A stretch of DNA of 11,751 bases from a virus. Shown here piece after piece: positions 1-11,751 of this stretch. Within the stretch, counting starts at the first letter, position 1; every line of letters starts with the position of its first letter. The notes beneath the pieces were generated by a model that was given only the letters and a program-made list of their open reading frames with translations, was not told the DNA's origin and did no database searches. The position numbers and the translations under genes were made by a program. The stretch lies in the UHGV virus genome UHGV-1581437; one strand, written 5' to 3'.

Positions 1-1773
1 CCCGCCGCAATGCAGCTCAGTGACGCATTGGATACCGTCAGAGATATGTATAGAAAACAACTCCGAAAAGTACCGCCTTCCGCGCCAATCGGGTTCATCC
101 CGGAAAGCTGGAGAAAGGTTGTGATCACCCCCACCGGCATTGACCGAAAATATTACGAATTTTGCGTGCTGAATGAACTGAAGGGAGCCTTACGTTCAGG
201 TGACATCTGGGTAAAGGGGTCACGCCGCTACAGGAATTTCGATGATTATCTGATCCCGTCAGACGATTTTGAAAAATCACTCCGGGATAACCAGTTACCC
301 CTTGCTGTTCCGGCCGATTGCCATGAATACATCAAGAGCCGTTTGACGCTTCTTGCATCGCGTCTGGAAGAAGTTAACGCGATGGCGCTGGCCTGTGATT
401 TACCCGATGTTGATATATCGGATAAAGGCGTGAAAATTACCCCGCTGGATAACAGTGTCCCTTCAGCAGCATCCCCTTTTGGCGATCTGGTTTATGGCAT
501 GCTCCCTCACCCTAAAATTACTGAAATGCTGGATGAAGTGGACGGCTGGACTGGTTTTACCCGCCATTTCACACATCTCAAAAACAATCACGTCAGACCT
601 AAAGACAGAAAGTTGTTACTGACCACCATCCTGGCCGATGGTATCAACCTTGGACTGACAAAAATGGCCGAATCCTGTCCGGGAACGACCAAATCGTCAC
701 TCGAGGGCATTCAGGCCTGGTACATCAGGGATGAAACCTATTCAGCTGCGCTGGCCGAGTTGGTCAATGCCCAGAAAAAAAGCCCTCTGGCGGCATTCTG
801 GGGCGATGGAACAACGTCATCGTCTGATGGACAGAACTTTCGGGTGGGGAGTCACGGGCGTTATGCTGGTCAGGTCAATCTTAAATACGGTCAGGATCCA
901 GGCGTGCAGATTTATACGCATATTTCGGACCAATACAGCCCGTTTTACACCAAAGTTATCAGCCGCGTGCGGGATTCAACACACGTACTTGATGGTCTGC
1001 TGTACCACGAAACTGATCTGGAAATTACAGAGCATTACACCGACACAGCAGGTTTCACTGAGCATGTTTTTGCGCTAATGCATCTGCTCGGATTCGCTTT
1101 TGCGCCAAGGATCCGGGATCTTCATGACAAACGGCTGTTTATTCATGGAAAAGCTGAGTTGTATCAGGGGCTTCAGTCAATCATCTCGACAACCAGCCTG
1201 AATCTAAAGGAAATTGAAACCCACTGGCATGAGGTGCTGCGTCTGGCAAGTTCTATAAAGCAGGGAACGGTAACAGCATCACTGATGATGAAAAAGCTGG
1301 CAAGCTATCCGAAGCAGAATGGTCTGGCAAAGGCGCTGAGAGAGATTGGCCGCATCGAAAGGTCATTGTTTATGCTGGACTGGTTCAGGGATCCTTTACT
1401 GCGTCGACGCGTACAGGCGGGGCTGAATAAAGGTGAGGCTCGCAATGCCCTTGCGCGAGCGGTCTTTATGCATCGGCTGGGTGAAATCAGAGATCGGGGG
1501 CTGGAGAATCAGAGCTATCGAGCCAGCGGTCTGACGTTGCTGACTGCGGCGATCTCACTGCGGAATACGGTATATATAGAAAGAGCGATAGATTCTTTGA
1601 GACGAAAAGGGATCCCGATTAATGAGCAACTGATTACCCATCTGTCACCACTGGGATGGGAACATATCAACCTGAGCGGGGATTACGTCTGGAGAACGAA
1701 CCTCAAACTGGGACAGGGTAAATACCGCGCATTACGCTCAGTGAATAGTAATATGTACAAAAAACAGGCTTAG
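1..1773 (+). CDS. tnpA: Tn3-family DDE transposase TnpA, C-terminal ~590 aa (5' partial; frame is open through bases 1-9)
   Basis: ORF track 10..1773 (587 aa) with no stop in frame back to position 1. Size, composition and a stop codon (TAG 1771-1773) embedded in the terminal IR are typical of Tn3-family TnpA. Not Tn3 itself: the C-terminus differs from the Tn3 TnpA I recall. Confidence 0.88.
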
Positions 1774-1806
1774 CGTAGGATAATTTCCGTTTTCCAAGCG
1801 GACCCC
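1769..1806. repeat. 38-bp Tn3-family terminal inverted repeat (outer end at 1806)
   Basis: Reverse complement of 1769..1806 reads GGGGTCCGCTTGGAAAACGGAAATTATCCTACGCTAAG. It shares the GAAAACGGAAA core and ACGCTAAG inner end with Tn21/Tn501-subgroup IRs as I recall them. The 5 bp immediately outside (1807-1811, ATATA) is the candidate target-site duplication. Confidence 0.8.
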
Positions 1807-2108
1807 ATATAGCAGGCAATGCAGGGGAGAGTGCCAAGAGCATTGGCGATGCGCCGTTCCTCCGCCGTTGGTGTTCTCCCCTTCAAGCCACGAGATTTTA
1901 TTTTTACCGCGCTTTTCCGCGTTTTGCTGGCTGGTGGGCGCTCTTTCTGTTTAGCGATACGGCGGTCGATAGTATCCCGCATTTTCTGATATTGAGATTC
2001 TCGCCAGACCGGATCAGCCAACTTCTCCCGTTGCCGAGCGATCGCTCGTTCTCTGGCTGCCTTCTGCCACTTGCGGCACTGTTCAATTTTTTGTTCGATT
2101 GTTTTCAT
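1807..2108 (-). pseudogene. ref: ref (P1 recombination enhancement function) truncated by the transposon; only ~100 N-terminal codons remain
   Basis: Minus-strand ORF 1770..2108 begins MKTIEQKIEQCRKWQKAARER... (P1 Ref N-terminus as I recall it) and reads up to ...LPCIACYM. It then continues into the transposon IR ([11 protein letters not shown], then stop), so the C-terminal HNH-type domain is missing from this locus. Confidence 0.75.
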
Positions 2109-2114
2109 ATGGTC

Positions 2115-2141
2115 AAAAAAAAGGCGGCCTAATGGCCGCCT
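2115..2141 (-). terminator. Intrinsic-terminator-like hairpin on the minus strand, immediately upstream of the ref start
   Basis: Perfect inverted repeat AGGCGGCC-TAAT-GGCCGCCT (2122-2141) followed on the minus strand by a run of eight T (plus-strand A run 2115-2122). Confidence 0.4.
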
Positions 2142-2206
2142 ATGATGTCAAGGAGTGAAGTAATGGCAACGTCTTCGTAGTTGACAAAAACTGCGACTCA
2201 ATTATG

Positions 2207-2223
2207 GCAACCAATTAGAGCAA
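2207..2223 (-). promoter_or_regulatory. C1-operator-like 17-mer upstream of ref (ref operator position)
   Basis: Minus strand reads ATTGCTCTAATTGGTTG; the first 11 positions match the P1 C1 operator consensus ATTGCTCTAATAAATTT. Confidence 0.5.
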
Positions 2224-2355
2224 TTAAAGTTGTTTATTTATCGCGAATCACATTTTTTCACTTCAGTACCTGTGTGCTATACTCCTTTTTGATTAATTGG
2301 ATGCGGAATACAAACCCGCTCTTTTGTGCAGCCTGGCTCCTTGCCAGGCTTTTTT

Positions 2356-2667
2356 TTATTTCATCATGGAAGCTGTTAACGCTTTGGACCTTGCTGAACT
2401 GATTGAGAGGGCTTTGTCAACGTGCCCCAAAAATTCGCCAAACTCAGACATCACTTTAGCAAAACCGCGCCGTGCTTCTTCCTCGGTGGCATTCATCACG
2501 AAATGTTCAGCACCACGCATACTTTTGACAGGGAACGCAACGGATATTGAATCAATATCAGGCATTCTATCGCTCAGCTTTACAGTGACAATGACGGCTG
2601 GCGACTGAATATTAGTGCTTACAGACAGCACTACATATTTTCCGTCGATGTTGAAATCCTTTCTCAC
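2356..2667 (-). CDS. Hypothetical small protein in the cre-ref interval (position of the small P1 gene between cre and ref, possibly c8); GTG start as drawn
   Basis: 103-aa ORF on the same strand as cre and ref, with protein-like composition. The overlapping plus-strand ORF (2297..2608) is Ser/Leu/Cys-rich and less plausible. A C1-operator-like site lies just upstream. Start codon is uncertain. Confidence 0.4.
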   Translation of the reverse strand: MRKDFNIDGKYVVLSVSTNIQSPAVIVTVKLSDRMPDIDSISVAFPVKSMRGAEHFVMNATEEEARRGFAKVMSEFGEFLGHVDKALSISSARSKALTASMMK

Positions 2668-2683
2668 ATGTCACCATAAATAT

Positions 2684-2700
2684 CAAAGAATTAGAGCAAT
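2684..2700 (-). promoter_or_regulatory. C1-operator-like 17-mer between the cre stop and the downstream small gene
   Basis: Minus strand reads ATTGCTCTAATTCTTTG (13/17 to consensus, first 11 positions perfect). Confidence 0.5.
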
Positions 2701-2717
2701 CATTTACGCGTTAATGG

Positions 2718-3749
2718 CTAATCGCCATCTTCCAGCAGGCGCACCATTGCCCCTGTTTCACTATCCAGGTTACGGATATAGTTCATGACAATATTTACGT
2801 TGGTCCAGCCACCAGCTTGCATGATCTCCGGTATTGAAACTCCGGCGCGGGCCATATCTCGTGCGGCTCCGACACGGGCACTGTGTCCAGACCAGGCCAG
2901 GTACCTCTGGCCAGAGTCATCCTTAGCCCCGTAAATCAATCGGTGAGTTGCTTCAAAAATCCCTTCCAGGGCGCGAGTTGATAGCTGGCTGGTGGCAGAT
3001 GGCGCGGCAACACCATTTTTTCTGACACGGCAAAACAAGTAGTTATTCGGATCATCAGCTACACCAGAGACAGAAATCCATCGCTCGACCAGTTTAGTTA
3101 CCCCCAGGCTAAGTGCCTTCTCTACACCTGCGGTGCTAACCAGCGTTTTCGTTCTGCCAATATGGATTAACATTCTCCCACCGCCAGTACGCGAGATATC
3201 TTTAACCCTGATCCTGGCAATTTCGGCTATACGTAACAGGGTGTTATAAGCAATCCCCAGAAATGCTAGATTACGTATATCCTGGCAGCGATCGCTATTT
3301 TCCATGAGCGAACGAACCTGGTCGAAATCAGTGCGTTCGAACGCCAGCGCCTGTTTTGCACGTTCACCGGCATCAACGTTTTCTTTTCGGATCCGCCGCA
3401 TGACCAGTGAAACAGCATTGCTGTCACTTGGTCGTGGCAGCCCGGACCGACGATGAAGCATGTTTAGCTGGCCCAAATGTTGCTGGATAGTTTTCACTGC
3501 CAGACCGCGCGCCTGAAGATATAGAAGATAATCGCGAACATCTTCAGGTTCTGCGGGAAACCACTTCCGGTTATTCAACTTGCACCATGCCGCCCACGAC
3601 CGGCAAACGGACAGAAGCATTTTCCAGGTATGCTCAGAAAACGCCTGGCGATCCCTGAACATGTCCATCAGGTTCTTGCGAACCTCATCACTCGTTGCAT
3701 CGACCGGTAATGCAGGCAAATTTTGGTGTACGGTCAGTAAATTGGACAT
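2718..3749 (-). CDS. cre: Cre tyrosine site-specific recombinase
   Basis: 343-aa ORF starting MSNLLTVHQNLPALPVDATSDEVRKNLMDMFRDRQAFSEHTWKMLLSVCRSWAAWCKLNNRKWFPAEPEDVRDYLLYLQARGLAVKTIQQHLGQLNMLHRRSGLPRPSDSNAVSLVMRRIRKENVDAGERAKQALAFERTDFDQVRSLMENSDRCQDIRNLAFLGIAYNTLLRIAEIARIRVKDISRTGGGRMLIHIGRTKTLVSTAGVEKALSLGVTKLVERWISVSGVADDPNNYLFCRVRKNGVAAPSATSQLSTRALEGIFEATHRLIYGAKDDSGQRYLAWSGHSARVGAARDMARAGVSIPEIMQAGGWTNVNIVMNYIRNLDSETGAMVRLLEDGD, which I recognise as Cre; one position reads G where I recall D (RTGGGRM versus RTDGGRM). A loxP site lies ~410 bp upstream. Confidence 0.97.
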   Translation of the reverse strand: MSNLLTVHQNLPALPVDATSDEVRKNLMDMFRDRQAFSEHTWKMLLSVCRSWAAWCKLNNRKWFPAEPEDVRDYLLYLQARGLAVKTIQQHLGQLNMLHRRSGLPRPSDSNAVSLVMRRIRKENVDAGERAKQALAFERTDFDQVRSLMENSDRCQDIRNLAFLGIAYNTLLRIAEIARIRVKDISRTGGGRMLIHIGRTKTLVSTAGVEKALSLGVTKLVERWISVSGVADDPNNYLFCRVRKNGVAAPSATSQLSTRALEGIFEATHRLIYGAKDDSGQRYLAWSGHSARVGAARDMARAGVSIPEIMQAGGWTNVNIVMNYIRNLDSETGAMVRLLEDGD

Positions 3750-3756
3750 TTAACAC

Positions 3757-3978
3757 TCAGATGATGGTTTTAAGTAAAGTGTACAGGATCGGCTCTGCCT
3801 TTACCTGTTTATGGTTCTCGTCATAGAAACGCCAGCGACCGCGCGTGCGTTCTATTTTCTCTTCACCGCGCGATAATGACAGTTGGCAACTATCACGATC
3901 AAACCCTTTTGCCCGCCAGTAACCACGGTTTTTCTCAAGCTCAAGATGAGTGGACACTTTAGCAGTTGAATATCCCAT
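3757..3978 (-). CDS. Small basic protein (73 aa) immediately upstream of cre; likely the cre-associated small gene (cra)
   Basis: ATG preceded by a strong Shine-Dalgarno (minus strand AGAGGTGAAAA-ATG). The stop lies 8 nt before the cre ATG, suggesting co-transcription or coupling with cre. Confidence 0.45.
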   Translation of the reverse strand: MGYSTAKVSTHLELEKNRGYWRAKGFDRDSCQLSLSRGEEKIERTRGRWRFYDENHKQVKAEPILYTLLKTII

Positions 3979-4010
3979 TTTTCACCTCTGATTGATTGGT
4001 GGTGCTAAGT

Positions 4011-4069
4011 GCGCTACGCGAAATCTGTAGGACTAACACCGCCAACTTTTCACAGATTTTACGTAGCGC
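4011..4069. repeat. Long imperfect inverted repeat (~18 of 20 bp arms, ~20-bp spacer) in the loxP-cre regulatory region
   Basis: GCGCTACGCGAAATCTGTAG (4011-4030) pairs with CACAGATTTTACGTAGCGC (4051-4069). Adjacent GATC (Dam) sites at TTGATCAAATGATCA (4075-4089) and TTGATCAT (4135-4142). Confidence 0.5.
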
Positions 4070-4159
4070 AACCTTGATCAAATGATCACTATTTGACCTG
4101 CTAAGGTATTGAACTGTATGGATTTACAGGTAAATTGATCATATTCAATAACCCTTAAG

Positions 4160-4193
4160 ATAACTTCGTATAATGTATGCTATACGAAGTTAT
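4160..4193. other. loxP site-specific recombination site (Cre target)
   Basis: Exact 34-bp match ATAACTTCGTATA-ATGTATGC-TATACGAAGTTAT: two 13-bp inverted arms around the 8-bp asymmetric spacer. Confidence 0.97.
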
Positions 4194-4236
4194 CAGGTCC
4201 GAAGAGGAGTTTACGTCCAGCCGCGCACAAAAATCA

Positions 4237-4253
4237 AGAATTATTAGAGCAAT
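4237..4253 (-). promoter_or_regulatory. C1 operator (Op99-type), minus orientation
   Basis: Minus strand reads ATTGCTCTAATAATTCT (15/17 to consensus ATTGCTCTAATAAATTT). Confidence 0.6.
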
Positions 4254-4313
4254 AAATTTTGAGAGAAAAATCCCACTCCACCAGCTAAAAACTGGATTGT
4301 TTTTCATAGTTGT

Positions 4314-4340
4314 TTGACAATTGCTCTAATAAATTATAGT
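4314..4340 (+). promoter_or_regulatory. C1 operator (Op99-type) overlapping a sigma70-like promoter facing coi-c1
   Basis: TTGACA (4314-4319) followed directly by ATTGCTCTAATAAATTA (4320-4336, 16/17 to consensus) and TATAGT (4335-4340): a -35 and -10 with a 15-bp spacer fully occupied by the operator. Confidence 0.6.
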
Positions 4341-4574
4341 TTTGCCGCCGTTACGTAATACGACTTTGGATTCACTATTTAATGTGTCTTCAGCGTTGTA
4401 GAGCGGCTCAGAAGGAAATGAGCAAACAGGGAAACCTTATACAACGGCATTACAGCTATGCATTGCTCATCTTACACACAGCGCAATGTTGTTAGATTAC
4501 CCCAGCATGGATCATGGGTGAAACAGTAGGTCAGAGCTTCAGGCTCTGTGTTGTCAATACAGTGAGGCATAATT

Positions 4575-4784
4575 ATGGCTTTCATTCAACCAACCATCGA
4601 CGACGTTAGACATTGCTCTAACGCTTTATCTGTAGACCCTGCCGAAACCGACGCTGCCCGCGCCATTGCTGAACACTACTCAAAGATATCCAATCAGGAG
4701 TACCGCATCACCCAAGACGACCTGGATGACCTCACTGACACAATCGAATATCTCATGGCAACTAACCAGTTAGACTCACAATAA
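4575..4784 (+). CDS. coi: Coi (C1 inactivator), 69 aa
   Basis: 69-aa acidic ORF directly upstream of c1 and downstream of the operator cluster; GAGG lies 7 nt before the ATG. Size and position match P1 coi. Confidence 0.85.
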   Translation: MAFIQPTIDDVRHCSNALSVDPAETDAARAIAEHYSKISNQEYRITQDDLDDLTDTIEYLMATNQLDSQ

Positions 4785-4800
4785 ATGCACTAATAAATCT
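4784..4800 (+). promoter_or_regulatory. Weaker C1-operator-like 17-mer between coi and c1
   Basis: AATGCACTAATAAATCT (14/17 to consensus), followed by a TATAAT hexamer at 4820-4825. Confidence 0.35.
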
Positions 4801-4894
4801 ATTATTTTTGTTTGATCCCTCTATAATATAGGTCAGTAATGACCGGTTTTCTCAGCCGGGCGTTATTGACCATGTCAATTCTGGAGGAGGATCA

Positions 4895-5746
4895 ATGATA
4901 AATTATGTCTACGGCGAACAACTGTACCAGGAGTTCGTCAGCTTCAGGGATCTCTTTCTAAAAAAAGCTGTTGCACGCGCCCAACACGTTGATACAGCCA
5001 GCGACGGTCGTCCTGTACGCCCGGTTGTCGTTCTACCGTTCAAAGAAACTCACAGCATTCAGGCTGAAATTGATAAATGGACTTTAATGGCGCGGGAACT
5101 GGAACAGTACCCAGACCTCAATATCCCAAAGACTATTTTATATCCAGTGCCTAACATCCTTCGCGGTGTGCGCAAGGTTACAACTTATCAGACAGAAGCT
5201 GTGAACAGCGTCAACATGACCGCTGGCCGCATTATTCATCTGATTGATAAGGACATTCGCATCCAGAAAAGCGCAGGGATCAATGAGCACAGTGCGAAAT
5301 ACATAGAGAACCTGGAAGCAACAAAAGAGCTAATGAAGCAGTACCCGGAGGATGAAAAATTCCGTATGCGCGTACACGGCTTTAGCGAAACAATGCTGCG
5401 CGTCCATTACATTTCCAGTAGCCCTAACTACAATGATGGTAAATCAGTTAGTTACCATGTGCCGCTGTGTGGTGTGTTTATCTGCGATGAAACTCTCCGT
5501 GATGGAATCATCATCAACGGTGAATTCGAGAAAGCAAAATTTAGCCTTTATGACTCTATAGAACCGATCATCTGCGACCGCTGGCCGCAGGCAAAAATAT
5601 ATCGCCTGGCAGATATTGAAAATGTAAAAAAACAAATTGCCATCACTCGCGAAGAGAAAAAGGTCAAATCAGCCGCATCAGTTACGCGCAGCCGTAAAAC
5701 CAAGAAGGGGCAGCCAGTAAACGACAACCCCGAAAGCGCGCAATAA
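4895..5746 (+). CDS. c1: C1 repressor of lysis (primary immunity repressor), 283 aa
   Basis: 283-aa ORF with strong RBS (GGAGGAGG, 4883-4890). Length, position after coi and the surrounding operator array match P1 c1. Confidence 0.92.
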   Translation: MINYVYGEQLYQEFVSFRDLFLKKAVARAQHVDTASDGRPVRPVVVLPFKETHSIQAEIDKWTLMARELEQYPDLNIPKTILYPVPNILRGVRKVTTYQTEAVNSVNMTAGRIIHLIDKDIRIQKSAGINEHSAKYIENLEATKELMKQYPEDEKFRMRVHGFSETMLRVHYISSSPNYNDGKSVSYHVPLCGVFICDETLRDGIIINGEFEKAKFSLYDSIEPIICDRWPQAKIYRLADIENVKKQIAITREEKKVKSAASVTRSRKTKKGQPVNDNPESAQ

Positions 5747-5749
5747 ATT

Positions 5750-5771
5750 ATGCCCGGCATCAACCGGGCAT
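5750..5771. terminator. Bidirectional intrinsic-terminator-like hairpin between convergent c1 and the Ant-like gene
   Basis: ATGCCCGG-CATCAA-CCGGGCAT perfect 8-bp stem with T-rich flanks on both strands, sitting in the 32-bp gap between two convergent stop codons. Confidence 0.6.
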
Positions 5772-5778
5772 TCTTCCA

Positions 5779-6891
5779 TTATTCAGCCGCCACCGGTTTT
5801 AACAAGCCAGCATCGAGCAGTTTACGCGTCAACCACTGCTGGCCTTTACCCGTTAATTGAGGCGTCAACCGTATCTGGTAGCCATCTTCATCATCCAGCA
5901 CCACTTCTTTCACCGTGAAATACCCCGCGTTGATGTACTGCTGGAACGGCACATTTTTACGTCCACCGGACGCTATCAGGATGCCGTTCTCCCGTAACCA
6001 GACAAACAGCGCGTTTTGCTTAAGTCCAACAACCTTTGCAAAATTCCCAATCAGGATCCCTTTAGCTACTGATACCCGGTCGGCAAAATCGACTTTAGGA
6101 GCGGCGGCCACCAGCTGCTGATTTAGCTGGTGGGCTTTCTGTTCCAAAAGCTGCTTTTGTTCAGCCAGTTCGGCAGCCAGGCGCAGAGCTTCTGGAAGCG
6201 TCTGGGGGATTGCAACCGGTTGCTGTTCTTTTTGCCGGAAGTAGCTGTCTTCCAGTTTTTCAAAGAATGCCCATGCTTCATTTGTGTCCACGATCTTAGA
6301 CATGCGTGCAGCGCCGCGCTCTGTCCAGAGTGTAAGGCTTCTGGCGTTCTTACCAACAGAGTAACTTCCGGTTACTCTGTTCTTAAATTCTCTTAATTTT
6401 AAACCAGTTAGAAGAAAGTAATGCTTACCTTCTTCAAAGCGGTCAAGGTTGCGAGACAAATTGTTGCGAATATTGGCTTCATCGACCCCATACCCTCTAG
6501 CAAGAGTTTCGGTTGTCACGACACGTACTCCCTGCCATTCCAGAACGGGAATTTCATCCGGCTGATTCTGAACAACCACCAGTTCCGATTCCTGAACTGA
6601 AGGTGCATAAATTTTTTCTGATTTAACGTTAGTTGCTTTCATTCTGTGTGCCTCCTTGCGTGCTTCGGCTGCGACGGTTGCGTAATTCAGATGACCCTGT
6701 TCGAGCAGGTATTCACGGATATCGGTTAGCAGAATGCGGTGAACCGCGTGTTTGTCCTTTCTCCGGTAAAGTTGTTTGGTGATCATGAAGTAGTTGGCAA
6801 TAACGCCCGGTATATCCCTGGTACTGATACAGGCAGTGTGCTGTTCAATTGCCTCGATCATCTCTTCACGGGTGACTAATGACGTTCTCAT
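5779..6891 (-). CDS. Ant-like antirepressor (370 aa) with an ORF6N/Bro-N-like central domain and a KilAC-type C-terminal domain; in-frame internal start at 6642 would give a 287-aa isoform
   Basis: Strong RBS (minus AGGAGGG 4 nt before ATG). Central segment LEWQGVRVVTTETLARGYGVDEANIRNNLSRNLDRFEEGKHYFLLTG...LWTERGA...FFEKLEDSYF has the ORF6N pattern; the C-terminus (VDFADRVSVAKGILIGNFAKVVGLKQNALFVWLRENGIL...) is KilAC-like. Domain calls are from motif memory, not a search. Confidence 0.85.
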   Translation of the reverse strand: MRTSLVTREEMIEAIEQHTACISTRDIPGVIANYFMITKQLYRRKDKHAVHRILLTDIREYLLEQGHLNYATVAAEARKEAHRMKATNVKSEKIYAPSVQESELVVVQNQPDEIPVLEWQGVRVVTTETLARGYGVDEANIRNNLSRNLDRFEEGKHYFLLTGLKLREFKNRVTGSYSVGKNARSLTLWTERGAARMSKIVDTNEAWAFFEKLEDSYFRQKEQQPVAIPQTLPEALRLAAELAEQKQLLEQKAHQLNQQLVAAAPKVDFADRVSVAKGILIGNFAKVVGLKQNALFVWLRENGILIASGGRKNVPFQQYINAGYFTVKEVVLDDEDGYQIRLTPQLTGKGQQWLTRKLLDAGLLKPVAAE

Positions 6892-7109
6892 AGTCCCTCC
6901 TGAGCAGAAGCGTTAACAGGGAGGCACCAGTAACTGAGAGAATTGCGCGAATCGGTAGAAAAGCGGGCAGAGAAAATACAGGGAGCATCCGGAAGCTGAG
7001 AACGTGCCTCATCTTCTGTCGGTGCAATAACGAAGTGATAGTGACGTTTTTGGCAGGAGTAAAAGCGCCAGATAAATTCAGGATGAGCAGGGGTAGGGAT
7101 AGTAGCCAC
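6888..7109 (-). CDS. Icd-like small protein (73 aa) translationally coupled to the Ant-like gene
   Basis: GTG start 8 nt downstream of a consensus SD (minus AAGGAGG, plus 7118-7124). Its stop overlaps the ant ATG as ATGA (6888-6891). Size and overlap mirror P1 icd-ant1 (73-codon icd, as I recall). Confidence 0.55.
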   Translation of the reverse strand: MATIPTPAHPEFIWRFYSCQKRHYHFVIAPTEDEARSQLPDAPCIFSARFSTDSRNSLSYWCLPVNASAQEGL

Positions 7110-7117
7110 AATGGCAG

Positions 7118-7141
7118 CCTCCTTTTGCTAATTTAAGGAGC
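7118..7141 (-). promoter_or_regulatory. RBS-sequestering hairpin for the Icd-like ORF
   Basis: Minus strand GCTCCTT-AAATTAGCAA-AAGGAGGC: an upstream anti-SD (CTCCTT) can pair with the SD (AAGGAG) of the small ORF. Confidence 0.4.
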
Positions 7142-7293
7142 TACCGCGTGAGGTCTCAATCTCAATGGCGGTAGCACTGACTGGGTTGAGACTACCGGCG
7201 CAAAAGGGAACCGGCCTGCCTTTCGGCAGCCCAGCCAGCACTACCATTGATCTCTGAGCTAAACGCTACGTATGGCTGTGCGATGGCATGACA

Positions 7294-7322
7294 CAAAAAA
7301 AGACGCTTTTGGCGTCTGTGTC
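7294..7322 (-). terminator. Strong rho-independent terminator on the minus strand inside the module leader
   Basis: Minus strand GACAC-AGACGC-CAAAA-GCGTCT-TTTTTTT-GTGTC: GC-rich stem followed by seven T, with an outer GACAC/GTGTC clamp. Confidence 0.6.
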
Positions 7323-7430
7323 GCCTTTTGCATTATCCGGGGTCTCAATCCCGGCACCCGTTTTACTGAGGTGCCTGATAAGCATAAACCGAAAATGCCT
7401 CAAGGCGCAAGAGGTCAGGTTCAATGTAAC
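7294..7430 (-). ncRNA. Candidate C4-like antisense regulatory RNA (about 120-135 nt) running from the operator-overlapped promoter to the terminator
   Basis: Promoter-like elements on the minus strand (TTGTGT, 17-bp spacer, TACATT) next to a C1-operator-like site. Hairpin CCGGG-AUUGAGAC-CCCGG (plus 7337-7354). Terminator at 7294-7322. The loop is complementary to a downstream leader site. No protein-coding potential. Confidence 0.35.
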
Positions 7431-7448
7431 ATCGGTAGTTAAAAAACA

Positions 7449-7465
7449 CAATTTATTAGAGCAAA
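7449..7465 (-). promoter_or_regulatory. C1-operator-like 17-mer at the head of the sRNA/icd-like/ant-like module
   Basis: Minus strand TTTGCTCTAATAAATTG (15/17 to consensus), starting 4 nt after the pacB stop and overlapping the candidate promoter. Confidence 0.55.
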
Positions 7466-7468
7466 TAT

Positions 7469-8953
7469 TCATTCATTAAGCCATGCCAGAGCTTCATCAA
7501 CCTGCGCTTCGTCTTCGACGCTAAGCACTTCGTCCTGGGGAACATAATCCGCCAGCATAGCGAAACAATATGTATCCCAATGGTCTGGTGAGTGCAGGTT
7601 GAGTTTTTTCTTCATATCCTCCTTACTCATCACCTTCCATTGACCTGCGGAGTTAATCCCTACAGGGATTTTCGACGCTTCCTCAATAGTTTCATTACCC
7701 TTATCCAGTCTCATACGACCAGATTTTACGGCCTCTGCGGCTTGAACGTTGGCATAAGCACGTTTATCAAAGTACAGGCTCTTATCTTCACGGCTATGCA
7801 TCTTTTTACCCCAGCGTATACGCTGTACGGTAATACCATAATACTCGTACATCAGATCCGCCGTTGCTTTACCCAGGCCATCGCCGTCTATCGCTATGGT
7901 GATATTTGGGAATCGCTCAGGATTACATTCTGCGAAAATTTTGGCGGCAAGCTGCGTTTCTGTAACGTCTGTGTATTCCAGCATTCGATAGTTGATTACA
8001 CGGCGTTTATTTCGCTGGCCGGACACCATCATGATATTGATAACGGACTTATCCCGTCCCGTACCACCAGCAACGTCCACACATGCAAGCCAGCCCCATC
8101 CTTTTGCAATCTTGACTTTCCGCCGCGTTGCACGTTCAACCTCATCACGTCCAAGAAGGAAGCCATCCTGTGATTTAGGGAATAGGCCGCGTACCTTAAT
8201 CATGTACATAGGGTTATCACGCCCGCCGTACTCCGCCAGCTTCATTTTGATAAATGCTGGCGTTACCAACGGTGATTCCTCACTGTTAAGCGTGATCGCC
8301 GTATAAACGCCATCAGGGTTACCAGGACGCTTGGCCAGTTTATGGTGTGTATCGTAGAAATAGCCGCTTGGGCGTGTAGGCTGTGACAGCAATAAGATGC
8401 GGTTATCCTGTCCGGTAAGAGCACCGGTGATGATACCGAAAGCTCTATCACTGACACCGGAGGCTTCATCGATAATATACAGAAGATGATCTGCGTGTTC
8501 ACCGGCGAGAGCTTCTTCACTTCCCAGACGAAAGCCCTTCGGTACTACAGTCCATACACCTTTACCAGTAATCTCATAGAAAGCGGTTTCTGTCAGAACA
8601 AAATAATCAGCAAGCCATGGGAAACGGCTGGTGGCAGTAGCCCAGTTTATCTTGATGTACTTGAATATACCGGTCATTACCTGCTGAATTTTGTTCGCAA
8701 CGATAATGGCACGGGCACCTGGATACATGATTATGAACAACATGATCATGATAGAAGTCATGTCTGATTTCCCGGTACCGTGACCAGACGAAACAGATGT
8801 CTTGCTACCCTGTTCCTGCACAGACTCAATAATCAGATCCTGCTGCCAGGTAGGTGTTTTGCCGAACAAAACATCAGCGGCCGCAATCCAGTCATAACGA
8901 TATAGCGCCACCAGCTCGCGCCAACGTGGATCCGTTACGCAACTTCTGGCCAT
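7469..8953 (-). CDS. pacB: Terminase large subunit PacB (494 aa)
   Basis: 494-aa ORF with a Walker A-like motif (SSGHGTGKS) and acidic nuclease-type motifs. Its ATG overlaps the pacA stop (TAATG). Size and order match P1 pacB. Confidence 0.92.
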
Positions 8954-10146
8954 TAATCATCATCCCCGTATAGCTTGCGGGTAACTTCTTCGTCTTCCTC
9001 CTCGTCTTCGTCCAGGTCTTGTTCCAGCCATGGGTCGTTTGATACACCTTCAGTATCAACATCTCCATAACCGCCTGTATCAACGATATCGGCGATTTCT
9101 TCCCTACGCTGCTCAATCCACAATGCGGCATCGGCGCGGCGGTTGGCGGCCCGTTCTCGCGCAACTTTGTCCAGATCTTCAAGAGAAGGGCCACCGACGG
9201 CTGTTTGCCTTTCCTCATCATCGGTATTGGTCTTAGGAGCACGCAGATCGGCTTTGATTTGCTCCAGCATCAGGGGCGGCACTTTCCCGCCATGCGCCTC
9301 GATGAATTCAGCTGCTTCCAGCACTGACCAGTTATTTTCACGCTTTCGTTCGTATGCCAGCTTAACAATGCCAGCTTGCCCCATAGACAAAGCGTGCTTT
9401 TCCGCCTCCCGGCTTTCTTTTCGATAGTTATTCCGGATGCTGTAAATGGTGTTGATCAGGCTGCTTATCTGCGCGGAACAGCTGTTTAGCATGCTCGCGA
9501 TACGGTATTCAGGCGGAGTACCTTCATCATCGTCTTTTTGCTGATCGCGCATTTCCTGCACCAGGCGAATACACGTATCCCTGGCGTTCTCCAGCATAAG
9601 GAGATGAGAAAGAGACTTTTCCAGAAGAGTGGTTTCCAGAACATCGGCCCCGGACCGACGCAACATAGCGCGCGCGGCCTTCCGCGCTTCAACGTTATCT
9701 ATCAGGTAATCGCCAGCTTCGAATTCAAAGCGTTCACCATCATCATCCAGGGTGTCGCGTTCCAGGCGATCACGTAAGGTCCGGTGGGCGCGGGTGATCA
9801 CGTCATGATCATCAGAACGATCATTTATGCGCTTATTCTGGCGCTTCGCGTTCTCGACTGCGGCACTGACAACAGCATTAACTCTTTGTTTTTCAGCCAT
9901 TTCAGCCACAATGTGATCACCTGCACGTTGATCATTAGCGTGATCAATGATCATGCTTTTTAGTGGTTTTCTGACAGGCTTATTTGGCTTACGGCTGTCC
10001 GCTGTTCCGGTGTCTTCTTTGAATGCACGGAGATAACGACGTGCGGTGTTTGGGTTGAGATTAAACTCGGCGGCATATTGTGCGATGGTGTAACCACCAT
10101 CTCGCGCCAGGCGAGCAAAATTCTTCTTGTGATCGTCCCAGGTCAC
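8953..10146 (-). CDS. pacA: Terminase small subunit / pac-recognition protein PacA (397 aa); the pac site is embedded in the coding sequence
   Basis: 397-aa ORF with an N-terminal HTH-like region and a highly acidic C-terminus (DEDEEEDEE). GTG start with AAGGAAG RBS. Contains the clustered TGATCA hexamers characteristic of P1 pac. Confidence 0.92.
9794..9953. other. pac packaging-initiation site: 3 + 4 GATC-containing hexamers flanking a ~100-bp core
   Basis: Left cluster TGATCA 9794-9799, TGATCA 9806-9811, GATCA 9819-9823. Right cluster TGATCA at 9913-9918, 9929-9934, 9941-9946, 9948-9953. Seven Dam-methylatable hexamers in a 4/3 split is the described architecture of P1 pac. Confidence 0.85.
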
Positions 10147-10232
10147 TTATGCTTCCTTTCGTATAAAACTCTTTTTGACGCGAGGGTAACGAAAGTCACA
10201 TGTCAAAAGGCCCGGAACGGGCAAGCAATCAA

Positions 10233-10685
10233 TCAGATACGTGCGGATGTGGCATTACCGTAATGACGGTGCTGACGGACCACCTTATTGAAAAGTTGAC
10301 GCGCCATCACCCAAGGCTGGTGCTCCCGGCGTTCCTTTTCGTCCTGCGTCATATAGAGTTCGTTCTGGAGTTTTTCATCAAACCGGCGCGGAGCGCGGCT
10401 GCGGCGAAAGAATTCAGGATTCAGAGAGTGGATCTGAAATCTACGTGGGCGTGTACTGTCATCAATCAAAACAGACGAATACTTAGACACAGCGATAGCC
10501 TTTAAGCGCAGATAAACATCGCGCTTATCGACATCCAGATGCGGGTATTCCTTTTCAAGAATTGCTGCGAGATCTTTCGCTGATAGAAGAGATTTAGTGC
10601 GGATCATGTAATCCGCAATCTCGTACGATGTTATTCGTGAGTGATTTATTTCCATGAAGTGGCGTCCCTGCCAGTTAAGTAACAT
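10233..10685 (-). CDS. lpa: Lpa-like late promoter activator (150 aa as drawn; alternative ATG at 10655 gives 140 aa)
   Basis: Small basic ORF directly upstream of pacA and preceded by a C1-operator-overlapped promoter, as for P1 gene 10 / lpa. Identity is by synteny and size, not sequence recall. Confidence 0.7.
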   Translation of the reverse strand: MLLNWQGRHFMEINHSRITSYEIADYMIRTKSLLSAKDLAAILEKEYPHLDVDKRDVYLRLKAIAVSKYSSVLIDDSTRPRRFQIHSLNPEFFRRSRAPRRFDEKLQNELYMTQDEKERREHQPWVMARQLFNKVVRQHRHYGNATSARI

Positions 10686-10755
10686 CCTGTCACCTACTGA
10701 TTAGCCCATGTCAACTAATCAACGTCGAATATAATACCCTCGATTAAAGAAATAG

Positions 10756-10772
10756 CAATACATTAGAGCAAT
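10756..10772 (-). promoter_or_regulatory. C1-operator-like 17-mer overlapping the lpa promoter
   Basis: Minus strand ATTGCTCTAATGTATTG (13/17 to consensus). TTGCTC inside the operator serves as -35, then a 17-bp spacer, then TTTAAT as -10, all upstream of lpa. Confidence 0.6.
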
Positions 10773-10773
10773 T

Positions 10774-11751
10774 TTATCTAACGCTCGACGAATGACTTGT
10801 GATAGCGCCGACTCCAAGCGCGTAATCAAAGAACAATCGTTGATGCATCGCCAGCCTACCGTGCGTCTTCTCCCAATTATCGCGGTCACGCTCAATATCA
10901 CGCTGGCATGACTGGCACAGAGGAACAGCATAAATGTCATGCGCGCATAATCGACTATGACGAACGATATAAGGCGTAATGTGAGCGCCAGCTCCCGCAG
11001 CTCCACAGCCACAGCATGGACGGGAAGCCACAAAATCCATGTACTCGGGCAATTTTAGCGATTGGAGTTTTGGTATTTTGAAATGCGCCATGCCAGGGTC
11101 GGCGTCAACATCCACAGGGCATACTTTTGCACGCATCGGCGCGGCGCGTTCTTCCATCATCTGAACATATGCTGTAGCGCGATCGTCATACGGGCGAATA
11201 TCCGCCTCTTTCAGAGGTCCGCTATCCTGCGGAGTAGCCTTCATCTTATTTATTGATATGCGGCAGACTTCTTCCGGCATCAGGTGCATCATGTTGCGCA
11301 TGAAAGCCCACCAGCACAGCTCCTGAATACTTAAATCATGGCTATTTGAAAGGCCCATTTCCTGACGGGCGACATCCAGTATCCAGTTAACGCGATTATT
11401 GTGCAGCGTTTCTTTCAGCTCATTAAAACCACGCATCCGGTAATGGTTATCGTGATGCCAGCACAACAACACCGCGCTATTGTCTCGTTCAGCGTGGACA
11501 ATATGGTTGTCACACCAACTACGATCTGCGGCCTGGCATTGACCCTCTTTCCTACGCAACCACGCCACCAGCGCGTCAATTCCACCAATACGGCGAAACA
11601 GTTCATCGCTGTTAAAAAACGGCTGCAACGCCTCATTTGTTGCCATGGTTTGCTCGGTAACAACGAGGCCGTCTTCCATGTGCTCGATTAACTCACGCGG
11701 CACCGGCTCCATAATAAATTTACGGCCAGCCTCCACCAGCTTTCTGACTTC
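10774..11751 (-). CDS. Cys/His-rich protein with a Ref-like (DUF968/HNH-type) C-terminal motif; possibly the P1 pdcB-position gene; 5' end may lie beyond the window
   Basis: ORF of at least 320 aa, open to the window edge on the minus strand. C-terminus has [38 protein letters not shown] and an earlier [25 protein letters not shown] motif. Position upstream of lpa matches pdcB in the P1 gene order I recall. Confidence 0.65.

Follow-up and report, generated by a model that had tools for sequence, protein, structure and literature searches.

A Tn3-family transposon end interrupts ref in a P1-like sequence and is probably part of an immobile stump

The window, the whole 11,751-nucleotide stretch of UHGV virus genome UHGV-1581437 that was analysed, opens with the end of a Tn3-family transposon joined to the P1-type gene ref. 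The preferred reading, with a probability of about 70%, is that bases 1-1806 are the tnpA end of an 8.6-kb transposon that killed ref, that this end is likely an IS1-cut stump, and that the left arm of the P1 part was recombined near loxP. The earlier note on this DNA had described a Tn21-like transposon truncating Ref, with accessory genes of a phage-plasmid probably just upstream; its observation is confirmed and its interpretation is partly supported. What was found is a transposon-end scar that inactivates a dispensable phage gene, and on its own it has little importance.

Frame 1 is open on the forward strand from the first base to 1773 and yields 590 aa. In the translation of bases 1-1770 the Pfam domain DDE_Tnp_Tn3 is complete (positions 1-389 of 389, E 4.5e-147), and a large DDE transposase with this type of catalytic domain places the element in the Tn3 family. 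Together with the 38-bp inverted repeat (IR), the domain bears out the note's transposon end inside ref, and all of its coordinates hold. Compared with the tnpA of the intact element on NZ_CP011133, the gene is 99.8% identical at the nucleotide level and has two amino acid changes (G536C and W925R). The tnpA stop codon, TAG (1771-1773), lies inside the IR, which is canonical (GGGG...TAAG type); its partner would lie outside the window. The IR matches the IRR of the intact 8,586-bp element (L005, L006) at every position, and that element's IRL differs at 2 positions.

P1 reads CCATGC/ATATA/GCAGG at the position of the joint. From 1806/1807 to 2400 the window is homologous to P1 without gaps (97.5%; NC_005856 nt 2379-1785), and a Tn3-family end is joined to ref precisely, IR tip to target. 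Since the joint is precise, a past transposition into ATATA can be inferred, and this pentanucleotide would make up the 5-bp target duplication, provided that a second transposon end existed.

Table 1. Features at the transposon-ref joint and in the adjoining P1-like DNA (window coordinates)
Feature	Position	Strand	Remark
tnpA 3' part, residues 405-994 of 994 and stop codon	1..1773	+	Tn3-family transposase; continues past the window's left edge
Terminal IR (IRR, tnpA side), 38 bp	1769..1806	.	read directly; reverse complement GGGGTCCGCTTGGAAAACGGAAATTATCCTACGCTAAG
ref pseudogene ORF, truncated	1770..2108	-	112 aa
Target pentanucleotide ATATA at the IR tip	1807..1811	.	read directly
ref promoters P1ref and P2ref with C1 operator Oref	2141..2228	-	transferred from the P1 annotation via ungapped alignment
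loxP	4160..4193	+	exact 34-bp match

P1 ref occupies NC_005856 2077-2637 and the break comes after 302 nt, within codon 101, in line with the proposed truncation after about residue 100. Bases 1807-2108 cover the first 100 ref codons and 2 nt of codon 101. The frame then runs into the IR, as had been described, and bases 1770-1806 supply 11 IR-derived codons and a TAA stop, so the ORF consists of Ref residues 1-101 followed by 11 foreign residues. Ref has a 76-residue unstructured N-terminal part and a 110-residue globular HNH domain with its active site at H153 (PMC4330346). The insertion takes away 85 of these 110 residues, including the active-site His153, and the window lacks the complete ββα-metal HNH domain (residues 77-186) with His153 that characterizes the Ref family. 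For the Pfam profile RecA_dep_nuc (PF16786), the truncated protein keeps positions 1-29 of 103 and intact P1 Ref has positions 1-102, which agrees with the suggestion that the HNH-type C-terminal part was separated or lost. Since the HNH core and His153 are gone, ref is a dead gene encoding at most a 112-aa DNA-binding tail. The stump of ref could still be transcribed under C1 control, given the promoters and operator upstream.

The NCBI annotation pipeline PGAP has labelled this very sequence 'Ref family recombination enhancement nuclease, incomplete, missing C-terminus'. Truncation of ref affects about 20% (~133) of 649 ref-bearing PLSDB records, at several different positions, and the gene is absent altogether from some P1-like plasmids. 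Since ref is dispensable, the insertion is probably neutral for its carrier. P1 lysogens show a Ref-dependent enhancement of ciprofloxacin killing (PMC4713147), which a host with this ref allele only should lack.

The intact form of the transposon is an 8,586-bp Tn3-family metal-resistance (ars/chrA) element on Citrobacter amalonaticus Y19 plasmid NZ_CP011133 (184,724... region; L005 2221-10806) and on Leclercia plasmid NZ_CP068235; both plasmids have both IRs, tnpR, chrA and ars genes. Its gene order is IRL-arsC-arsB-arsR/arsH/padR-chrA/tnpR<->tnpA-IRR. The intact TnpA has an IR-binding DUF4158 domain at residues 6-169, and the window covers residues 405-994. The serine resolvase gene (Pfam Resolvase and HTH_7), whose counterpart would fall outside the window, is divergent from tnpA, with tnpR at L005 7052-7630 (-) and tnpA at 7789-10773 (+). 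In the classical Tn21 subgroup tnpR and tnpA are co-directional, with res upstream of tnpR. The proposed likeness to this subgroup therefore fails for gene direction but stands for the IR, whose ungapped identity is 29/38 to Tn21, 27/38 to Tn1721, 26/38 to Tn501 and 19/38 to Tn3 (the Tn1721, Tn501 and Tn3 sequences were confirmed as exact matches in L034). By this comparison the IR is nearer to the Tn21/Tn501/Tn1721 type than to Tn3. A homologue search returned the generic name 'Tn3 family transposase' only, plus one 73%-identical Tn2501-derived automatic name. The ars/chrA transposon could be given no ISfinder or TnCentral name, and a literature search on the element gave nothing relevant. 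A paper on Tn3-derived miniature inverted-repeat elements (PMC13367494) concerns a different insertion, with the direct repeat ATCCA.

The same junction recurs, at 99.9-100% identity, in 6 plasmids of PLSDB and in 3 complete E. coli plasmid records of RefSeq; one record is shared by the two sets, so at least 8 complete plasmids carry it. An exact look-up of the truncated protein (Ref') added 13 draft or metagenome contigs, none of which follows the window beyond 4,460; the exact Ant and PacB proteins are too common to discriminate among records. No full-length match came from a megablast of the whole window against plasmids, phages and complete E. coli genomes. Since independent records contain the junction at such identity, it is not an assembly artefact. 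The idea that transposon and P1 were joined only in silico rests on the mid-gene start of the window, and nothing was found in its favor. It is refuted by the independent records, namely complete plasmids sequenced separately in the UK, Germany and Canada as well as drafts and metagenomes, and the IR tip is exactly where the joint lies; the probability of a chimera is negligible. The junction is thus already known and ordinary, being public in E. coli plasmids with both genes flagged as incomplete, and it is old and widely spread. Three carrier plasmids examined in full or in part are metabolic or capsule plasmids of F-like or RepB/Sop type with a P1 remnant of ~15 kb (ref'..phd). These three are not phage-plasmids, and the window should not be assumed to be phage-plasmid DNA.

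In all five relatives with upstream DNA, tnpA is cut by an IS1 end 2,689 bp from the IR tip. The cut is at one shared point, with an identical IS1 joint at transposon coordinate 5898 in CP057248, NZ_CP081712, NZ_JBVDMN010000004, JH969566 and JH970492, and leaves a tnpA without its first ~110 codons. The complete plasmids CP057248 and NZ_CP081712, both read whole, have one IR each and no second one, and neither distal ref nor mat was found in them. The tnpR, res, chrA and ars of the intact element were found in none of four carriers compared, which include CP057248, CP081712 and the CB6886 plasmid (the last over 19-20 kb either way around the stump). A whole transposon with its cargo upstream, as the earlier note expected, is contradicted in every sequenced junction carrier examined, and cargo upstream of the window is probably not there. 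At its left edge the window ends 1,806 bp inside the element, and since it is 100% identical to one stump plasmid over 4,193 bp up to loxP, it most likely carries the same stump. Extrapolated from the relatives, the IS1 joint (IS1 end …ATCAGCAAGTTGGTAGCATTACC) would be expected 882 bp beyond the left edge of the window.

A simple and complete insertion is an unlikely alternative, though the least improbable one. The window would then come from a functional P1-like phage-plasmid with the whole 8.6-kb ars/chrA transposon in ref and a duplicated ATATA; distal ref would lie ~6.8 kb upstream and the IRL, GGGGTCCGCTTGGAAAACGGAAAATATCCTACGTTAAG, at about -6,780, preceded by ...CTCCATGCATATA. The clean joint between the IR tip and an AT-rich 5-mer is consistent with this, as are the open tnpA and complete DDE domain in the visible part, and other P1-like plasmids have a comparable complete insertion 3 bp away, in which the two halves of ref are retained and the 5-bp duplication was verified. 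All P1 genes in the window are intact and it lacks ISKpn26, which also speaks against a stump; these features fit an earlier, less decayed and possibly phage-competent carrier in which the whole transposon might persist. However, the predicted left junction (IRL, TATAT and distal ref) was in no PLSDB record when a synthetic 402-bp junction was used as the query, and the IS1-truncated stump is present in 5/5 relatives with upstream sequence, one of them the plasmid identical to the window up to loxP. Exact-pattern scans of three collections (viral, genome and metagenome contigs) found neither the left nor the right junction; since the right junction is likewise absent there, these scans are uninformative on the left end.

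The IR-ref joint might instead stem from a transposon-mediated adjacent deletion and not from simple insertion. Replicative Tn3-family elements are established to undergo deletion-type intramolecular transposition. If the element had first been located further along P1, such an event into ATATA would have removed all DNA in between, distal ref and mat included, and no duplication would ever have existed. The complete carriers are without distal ref and mat, yet a separate ~950-bp piece of P1 from the far side of mat, with an 82-aa gene, a 146-aa gene and a darB fragment, persists elsewhere in them, as this route would allow. The outcome cannot be distinguished from insertion followed by IS1-mediated loss, since IS1 has deleted the left flank in all relatives, and there is no positive evidence for adjacent deletion; it is considered improbable.

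The synthetic junction query revealed two other types of junction in PLSDB instead, those of NZ_CP145673 and NZ_CP063502. Three different Tn3-family ends are found within 8 bp of ref. In NZ_CP145673 (L032 11495-12048) the tnpA 3' end is 88% identical to that of the window, and its IR, GGGGTCCGTTTGGAAAACGGAAAATATCCTACGTTAAG, has 3 mismatches to the window IR. The 5 bp where this IR meets TATAT and distal ref are the very same as in the window, and its orientation is that expected of the missing end. The two tnpA-end IRs could therefore have entered ref as one composite unit, duplicating TATAT. NZ_CP145673 and the CB6886 plasmid both have an rfbBDAC (dTDP-rhamnose/capsular-polysaccharide) cluster, although with different protein alleles, and ISKpn26 between coi and cra. 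However, the two ends occur together in no record, each half sits on a plasmid of its own, and a further, full-length copy of ref is present in NZ_CP145673. Independent insertions at a hot spot explain the data equally well, given the third, different IR 3 bp away, and a composite insertion is quite improbable. An intramolecular inversion as the source of two tnpA-end junctions was rejected on mechanism, since in replicative transposition the two target halves are always joined to one L end and one R end. A broader and tentative view, somewhat short of even odds, is that the 8 bp around ref codons 99-101 (GC-TATAT-GC) are a recurrent Tn3-family hot spot in P1-type elements, which at least two and probably three different elements have entered, and that Cre/loxP crossover carries the transposon-marked ref-c8-cre-cra arm from one P1-type replicon to another.

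The P1 part of the window has the P1-like gene order c8-cre-cra-loxP-coi-c1-(ant)-pacB-pacA-lpa-pdcB, and bases 1806-11751 are collinear with many P1-like plasmids at 97-98.6%. The virion, lysis and IncY replication and partition genes of a P1-like phage-plasmid would lie outside the window. Except for ref it is intact, with cre, c1, ant, pacB, pacA and lpa at full length. No ISKpn26 is present, and this element occurs in every complete or near-complete relative examined. The window has 0 mismatches to the CB6886 plasmid (L029) over bases 1-4193 and 6 within the next 120 bp; right of 4194 it has the haplotype of L023, an ordinary P1-like lineage. The change of lineage falls inside a 50-bp interval (4144-4193) that contains loxP. 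This is most simply explained by a Cre-mediated crossover, but ordinary homologous recombination could also hit the interval. Another mosaic boundary is located near 8,000, so at least one exists besides the loxP interval. The top whole-window match among complete E. coli genomes, NZ_AP042707, contains a tnpR/tnpA pair of a related Tn3-family element, but this lies between coi and c1 and not in ref, and it has nothing to do with the junction described here.

In the preferred reading, the 8.6-kb Tn3-family element would have transposed into the AT-rich ATATA at ref codons 100-101 of a P1-type element. An IS1 insertion or deletion may then have reduced it to a 2.7-kb immobile stump, as in the relatives with known upstream DNA; the distal half of ref would have been lost, and the stump would be without tnpR, res, cargo and second IR. 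Finally, a crossover in the 50-bp interval would have joined the left arm, up to loxP, to an ordinary P1-like phage-plasmid's right arm (coi-c1-ant-pacB...). If the arm-exchange view is true, the window would be a cointegrate or exchange product of a P1-remnant plasmid and a live phage-plasmid, and plasmid cargo and phage-plasmids would have a route by which to swap arms. The clustered Tn3-family insertions in ref and the lineage switch at loxP may be modestly useful for tracing how P1-like elements gain cargo and decay into plasmids.

Four known systems can be compared with the window. Over codons 1-101 it is collinear with P1 ref (NC_005856 2077-2637; PDB 3PLW), which encodes a RecA-dependent HNH endonuclease, at 97.5% nucleotide identity, and it keeps the upstream promoters and C1 operator. 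Unlike P1 ref, it is without residues 102-186, which make up most of the HNH domain including H153; therefore, the allele is a pseudogene and not a functional member of the Ref family. Bases 1-1806 are 99.8% identical to the intact ars/chrA transposon and the IRR is identical, but the tnpA end alone is seen, whereas the intact element has an IRL, arsC-arsB-arsR, arsH, padR-chrA, tnpR and a 994-aa tnpA. In NZ_CP063502, a qnrS1-bearing P1-like plasmid with a multidrug-resistance region in ref (ref::MDR-region), a Tn3-family-type 38-bp IR, GGGGTCAGTTTGGATATCGAAAATTATTGTACGTTAAG, lies 3 bp from the site in the window. It is 30/38 identical to the window IR and represents a different element end, and this type has both IRs, both ref halves, the duplication TAGCA and ~34 kb of resistance genes between the IRs. 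The closest systems are the junction carriers E. coli pRHB31-C22_2 (CP057248), AH21 unnamed1 (NZ_CP081712) and CB6886 unnamed2 (NZ_JBVDMN010000004), which share the IR, the ATATA and the 112-aa Ref' ORF with the window at 99.9-100% across the junction, CB6886 unnamed2 being identical across bases 1-4193. In the carriers PGAP labels the transposase gene 'Tn3 family transposase, missing N-terminus' and the ref gene 'Ref family ... missing C-terminus'. Between cra and coi the carriers have either ISKpn26 or a dms operon bounded by ISKpn26, and their ant/pacB region is degraded or divergent, whereas the window has neither insertion, retains intact ant and pacB, and right of loxP follows a P1-like haplotype different from theirs.

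The window opens in a tnpA reading frame (1-1773, + strand, frame 1) that is open from base 1 and encodes 590 residues with the C-terminus ...NSNMYKKQA*. This part contains the complete Pfam domain DDE_Tnp_Tn3 (positions 1-389 of 389, E 4.5e-147), and the tnpA stop codon sits within a 38-bp inverted repeat (IR). Beyond the repeat, an ungapped alignment at 97.5% identity pairs window 1806/1807-2400 with phage P1 nt 2379-1785. Since P1 ref lies at 2077-2637 and the P1 homology has its edge at nt 2379, ref is broken after 302 nt, within codon 101. The earlier note proposed a Tn3-family end truncating Ref at about residue 100; the IR-ref joint and the P1 alignment confirm this core inference, and a re-reading of the sequence and its ORFs bore out all of its coordinates.

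Features at the ref junction and related sites
Feature	Record	Coordinates	Strand	Description
38-bp IR	window	1769-1806		final bases of the element; reverse complement GGGGTCCGCTTGGAAAACGGAAATTATCCTACGCTAAG; canonical Tn3-family terminal repeat
ATATA	window	1807-1811		directly after the IR
Truncated ref ORF	window	1770-2108	-	Ref 1-101 (MKTIEQ...LPCIACYM), then 11 IR-encoded residues
loxP	window	4160-4193		34 bp; inside the crossover interval
IR pair inserted 3 bp from the window's site	NZ_CP063502	L008 12011-12048 and L034 2519-2556

P1 Ref consists of an unstructured, DNA-binding N-terminal part of 76 residues and a globular HNH domain of 110 residues with active-site His153 (PMC4330346; structure, PDB 3PLW). 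The Pfam profile RecA_dep_nuc is covered at positions 1-29 of 103 in the truncated ORF versus 1-102 in intact Ref, so the nuclease core is lost. The ref promoters and the C1 operator are kept upstream of ref and map, via the P1 alignment, to window 2141-2228; a 112-aa tail from truncated ref could still be produced. The gene is dispensable, and the feature is a known transposon scar in ref that is already publicly annotated: in carriers of the junction, PGAP labels the transposase gene 'Tn3 family transposase, missing N-terminus' and the ref gene 'Ref family recombination enhancement nuclease, missing C-terminus'.

Window 1-1806 is 99.8% identical to the right end of an 8,586-bp element, of which intact copies lie on plasmid NZ_CP011133 of Citrobacter amalonaticus Y19 and plasmid NZ_CP068235 of Leclercia. 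Its order is IRL (the end opposite tnpA), arsC, arsB, arsR, arsH, padR, chrA, a serine resolvase gene, divergent tnpA and IRR (the tnpA end). The 994-aa tnpA product ends in an IRR identical to that of the window, IRL and IRR differ by two mismatches, and the part of tnpA in the window encodes TnpA residues 405-994, two of them substituted. In public databases this transposase is named only 'Tn3 family transposase'.

The junction is widespread: six PLSDB plasmids carry it at 99.9-100% identity, as do three records of complete E. coli plasmids in RefSeq (one also in PLSDB), and the exact 112-aa ORF is encoded by 13 further draft or metagenome contigs. Five records have enough upstream sequence to be read (CP057248, NZ_CP081712, NZ_JBVDMN010000004, JH969566 and JH970492). 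In all five, transposon homology ends at element coordinate 5898, which leaves 2,689 bp up to the tip of the IR, and there the same IS1 end (…ATCAGCAAGTTGGTAGCATTACC) adjoins it and the first ~110 codons of tnpA are removed. CP057248 and NZ_CP081712, read whole, are F-like or RepB/Sop plasmids rich in metabolic genes, with one IR each. Sensitive blastn of these two whole plasmids found neither distal ref nor mat, and none of the remaining parts of the intact element was found elsewhere in them. It is possible that the joint was made by adjacent deletion through intramolecular transposition; this is not separable from insertion followed by IS1-mediated loss. The P1 content of both plasmids is only a ~15-kb remnant (ref' to phd) and one separate ~950-bp piece of the region past mat. 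This isolated fragment (L030 15486-16713 and CP057248 34532-35501, both on junction-bearing plasmids) holds genes of 82 and 146 aa and part of darB; it has IS elements on both sides and is distant from the remnant. The capsule-gene plasmid of CB6886 (NZ_JBVDMN010000004) has the same arrangement.

Because the CB6886 plasmid matches window 1-4193 at 100% identity, the window most likely holds the same immobile stump as its relatives. This is an extrapolation from them, since the predicted IS1 joint falls 882 bp past the left edge of the window. The window could instead be an earlier, less decayed carrier with a complete insertion in ref, because its P1 genes are intact apart from ref (cre 343 aa, c1 283, ant 370, pacB 494, pacA 397 and lpa 150 aa) and it lacks ISKpn26, which all the complete or near-complete relatives examined carry. 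When the predicted left junction was built as a synthetic sequence and used to search PLSDB, no record with that junction was found. A complete insertion is unlikely, and the whole transposon with its cargo and a duplicated target site envisaged in the earlier note is unsupported, being contradicted by the IS1-cut stump in all sequenced carriers examined (5/5).

The ref gene is frequently disrupted in plasmids. Among 649 PLSDB records with ref (query L028:14792-15352), 133 (~20%) retain less than 80% of its length, and breakpoints in sampled records lie near nt 157, 230/236, 297-303, 315 and 430. Some P1-like plasmids have no ref altogether, and in L007 and L036 its place is taken by an ant-icd module or nothing. 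Three different Tn3-family ends fall within 8 bp of ref, the first being the window's IRR at ATATA. The second, 3 bp from the window's site (1804-1811), belongs to a different IR pair (GGGGTCAGTTTGGATATCGAAAATTATTGTACGTTAAG, 30/38 identical to the window's) in qnrS1-type P1-like multidrug-resistance plasmids; both ref halves are kept, a 5-bp duplication (TAGCA) is confirmed around the insertion, and the two IRs enclose ~34 kb with resistance genes. The third (NZ_CP145673.1, L032 11458-12598) is the tnpA 3' end of an 88%-identical element with its IR. It adjoins TATAT and distal ref, the same 5 bp as in the window with the opposite half of the gene, and is cut by a further Tn3-type IR (L032 11458-11495), beyond which lies IS1. 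Either the cluster is an insertion hot spot with an AT-rich core and GC on the flanks, the third end being an independent hit in opposite orientation, or the NZ_CP145673 junction is the absent far end of a two-IR composite.

The window is 100% identical to the junction lineage (L029) up to 4193, the final base of loxP, and from 4194 to ~8,000 has the haplotype of L023 (GCA_033384815.1), an ordinary P1-like plasmid whose ref is intact. The crossover interval (4144-4193, 50 bp) includes loxP. The simplest reading is a Cre-mediated event in which a live P1-like element and a plasmid with the P1 remnant exchanged DNA or formed a cointegrate; homologous recombination is a possible alternative. This loxP-bounded mosaic and the clustered Tn3-family ends in ref are the only mildly novel threads.

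The neighbouring gene content also varies. Between c1 and pacB (5779-7109) the window has a module of ant (ORF6N/ANT, 370 aa) plus an icd-like gene. P1 and CP057248 lack this module, but it is common among P1-like plasmids, and the identical Ant protein occurs in 262 indexed blocks of the assembly collection. The slot downstream of ref-mat (L019-L028, ~16,200-17,900) holds RelA_SpoT-domain, SIR2_2, PIN, DUF2971 or acetyltransferase genes in different P1-like plasmids and looks like a variable defence-gene island beside the ref locus. In another P1-like plasmid, NZ_AP042707.1, a related Tn3-family tnpR/tnpA pair is inserted between coi and c1 (L007 11666-15401), which marks a distinct event in this immunity region.

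The window IR is identical to that of Tn21 at 29/38 positions, Tn1721 at 27/38 and Tn501 at 26/38, versus 19/38 for Tn3. The label 'Tn21-subgroup-like' thus suits the IR alone, since tnpR and tnpA of the intact element are divergent, unlike those of the classical Tn21 subgroup.
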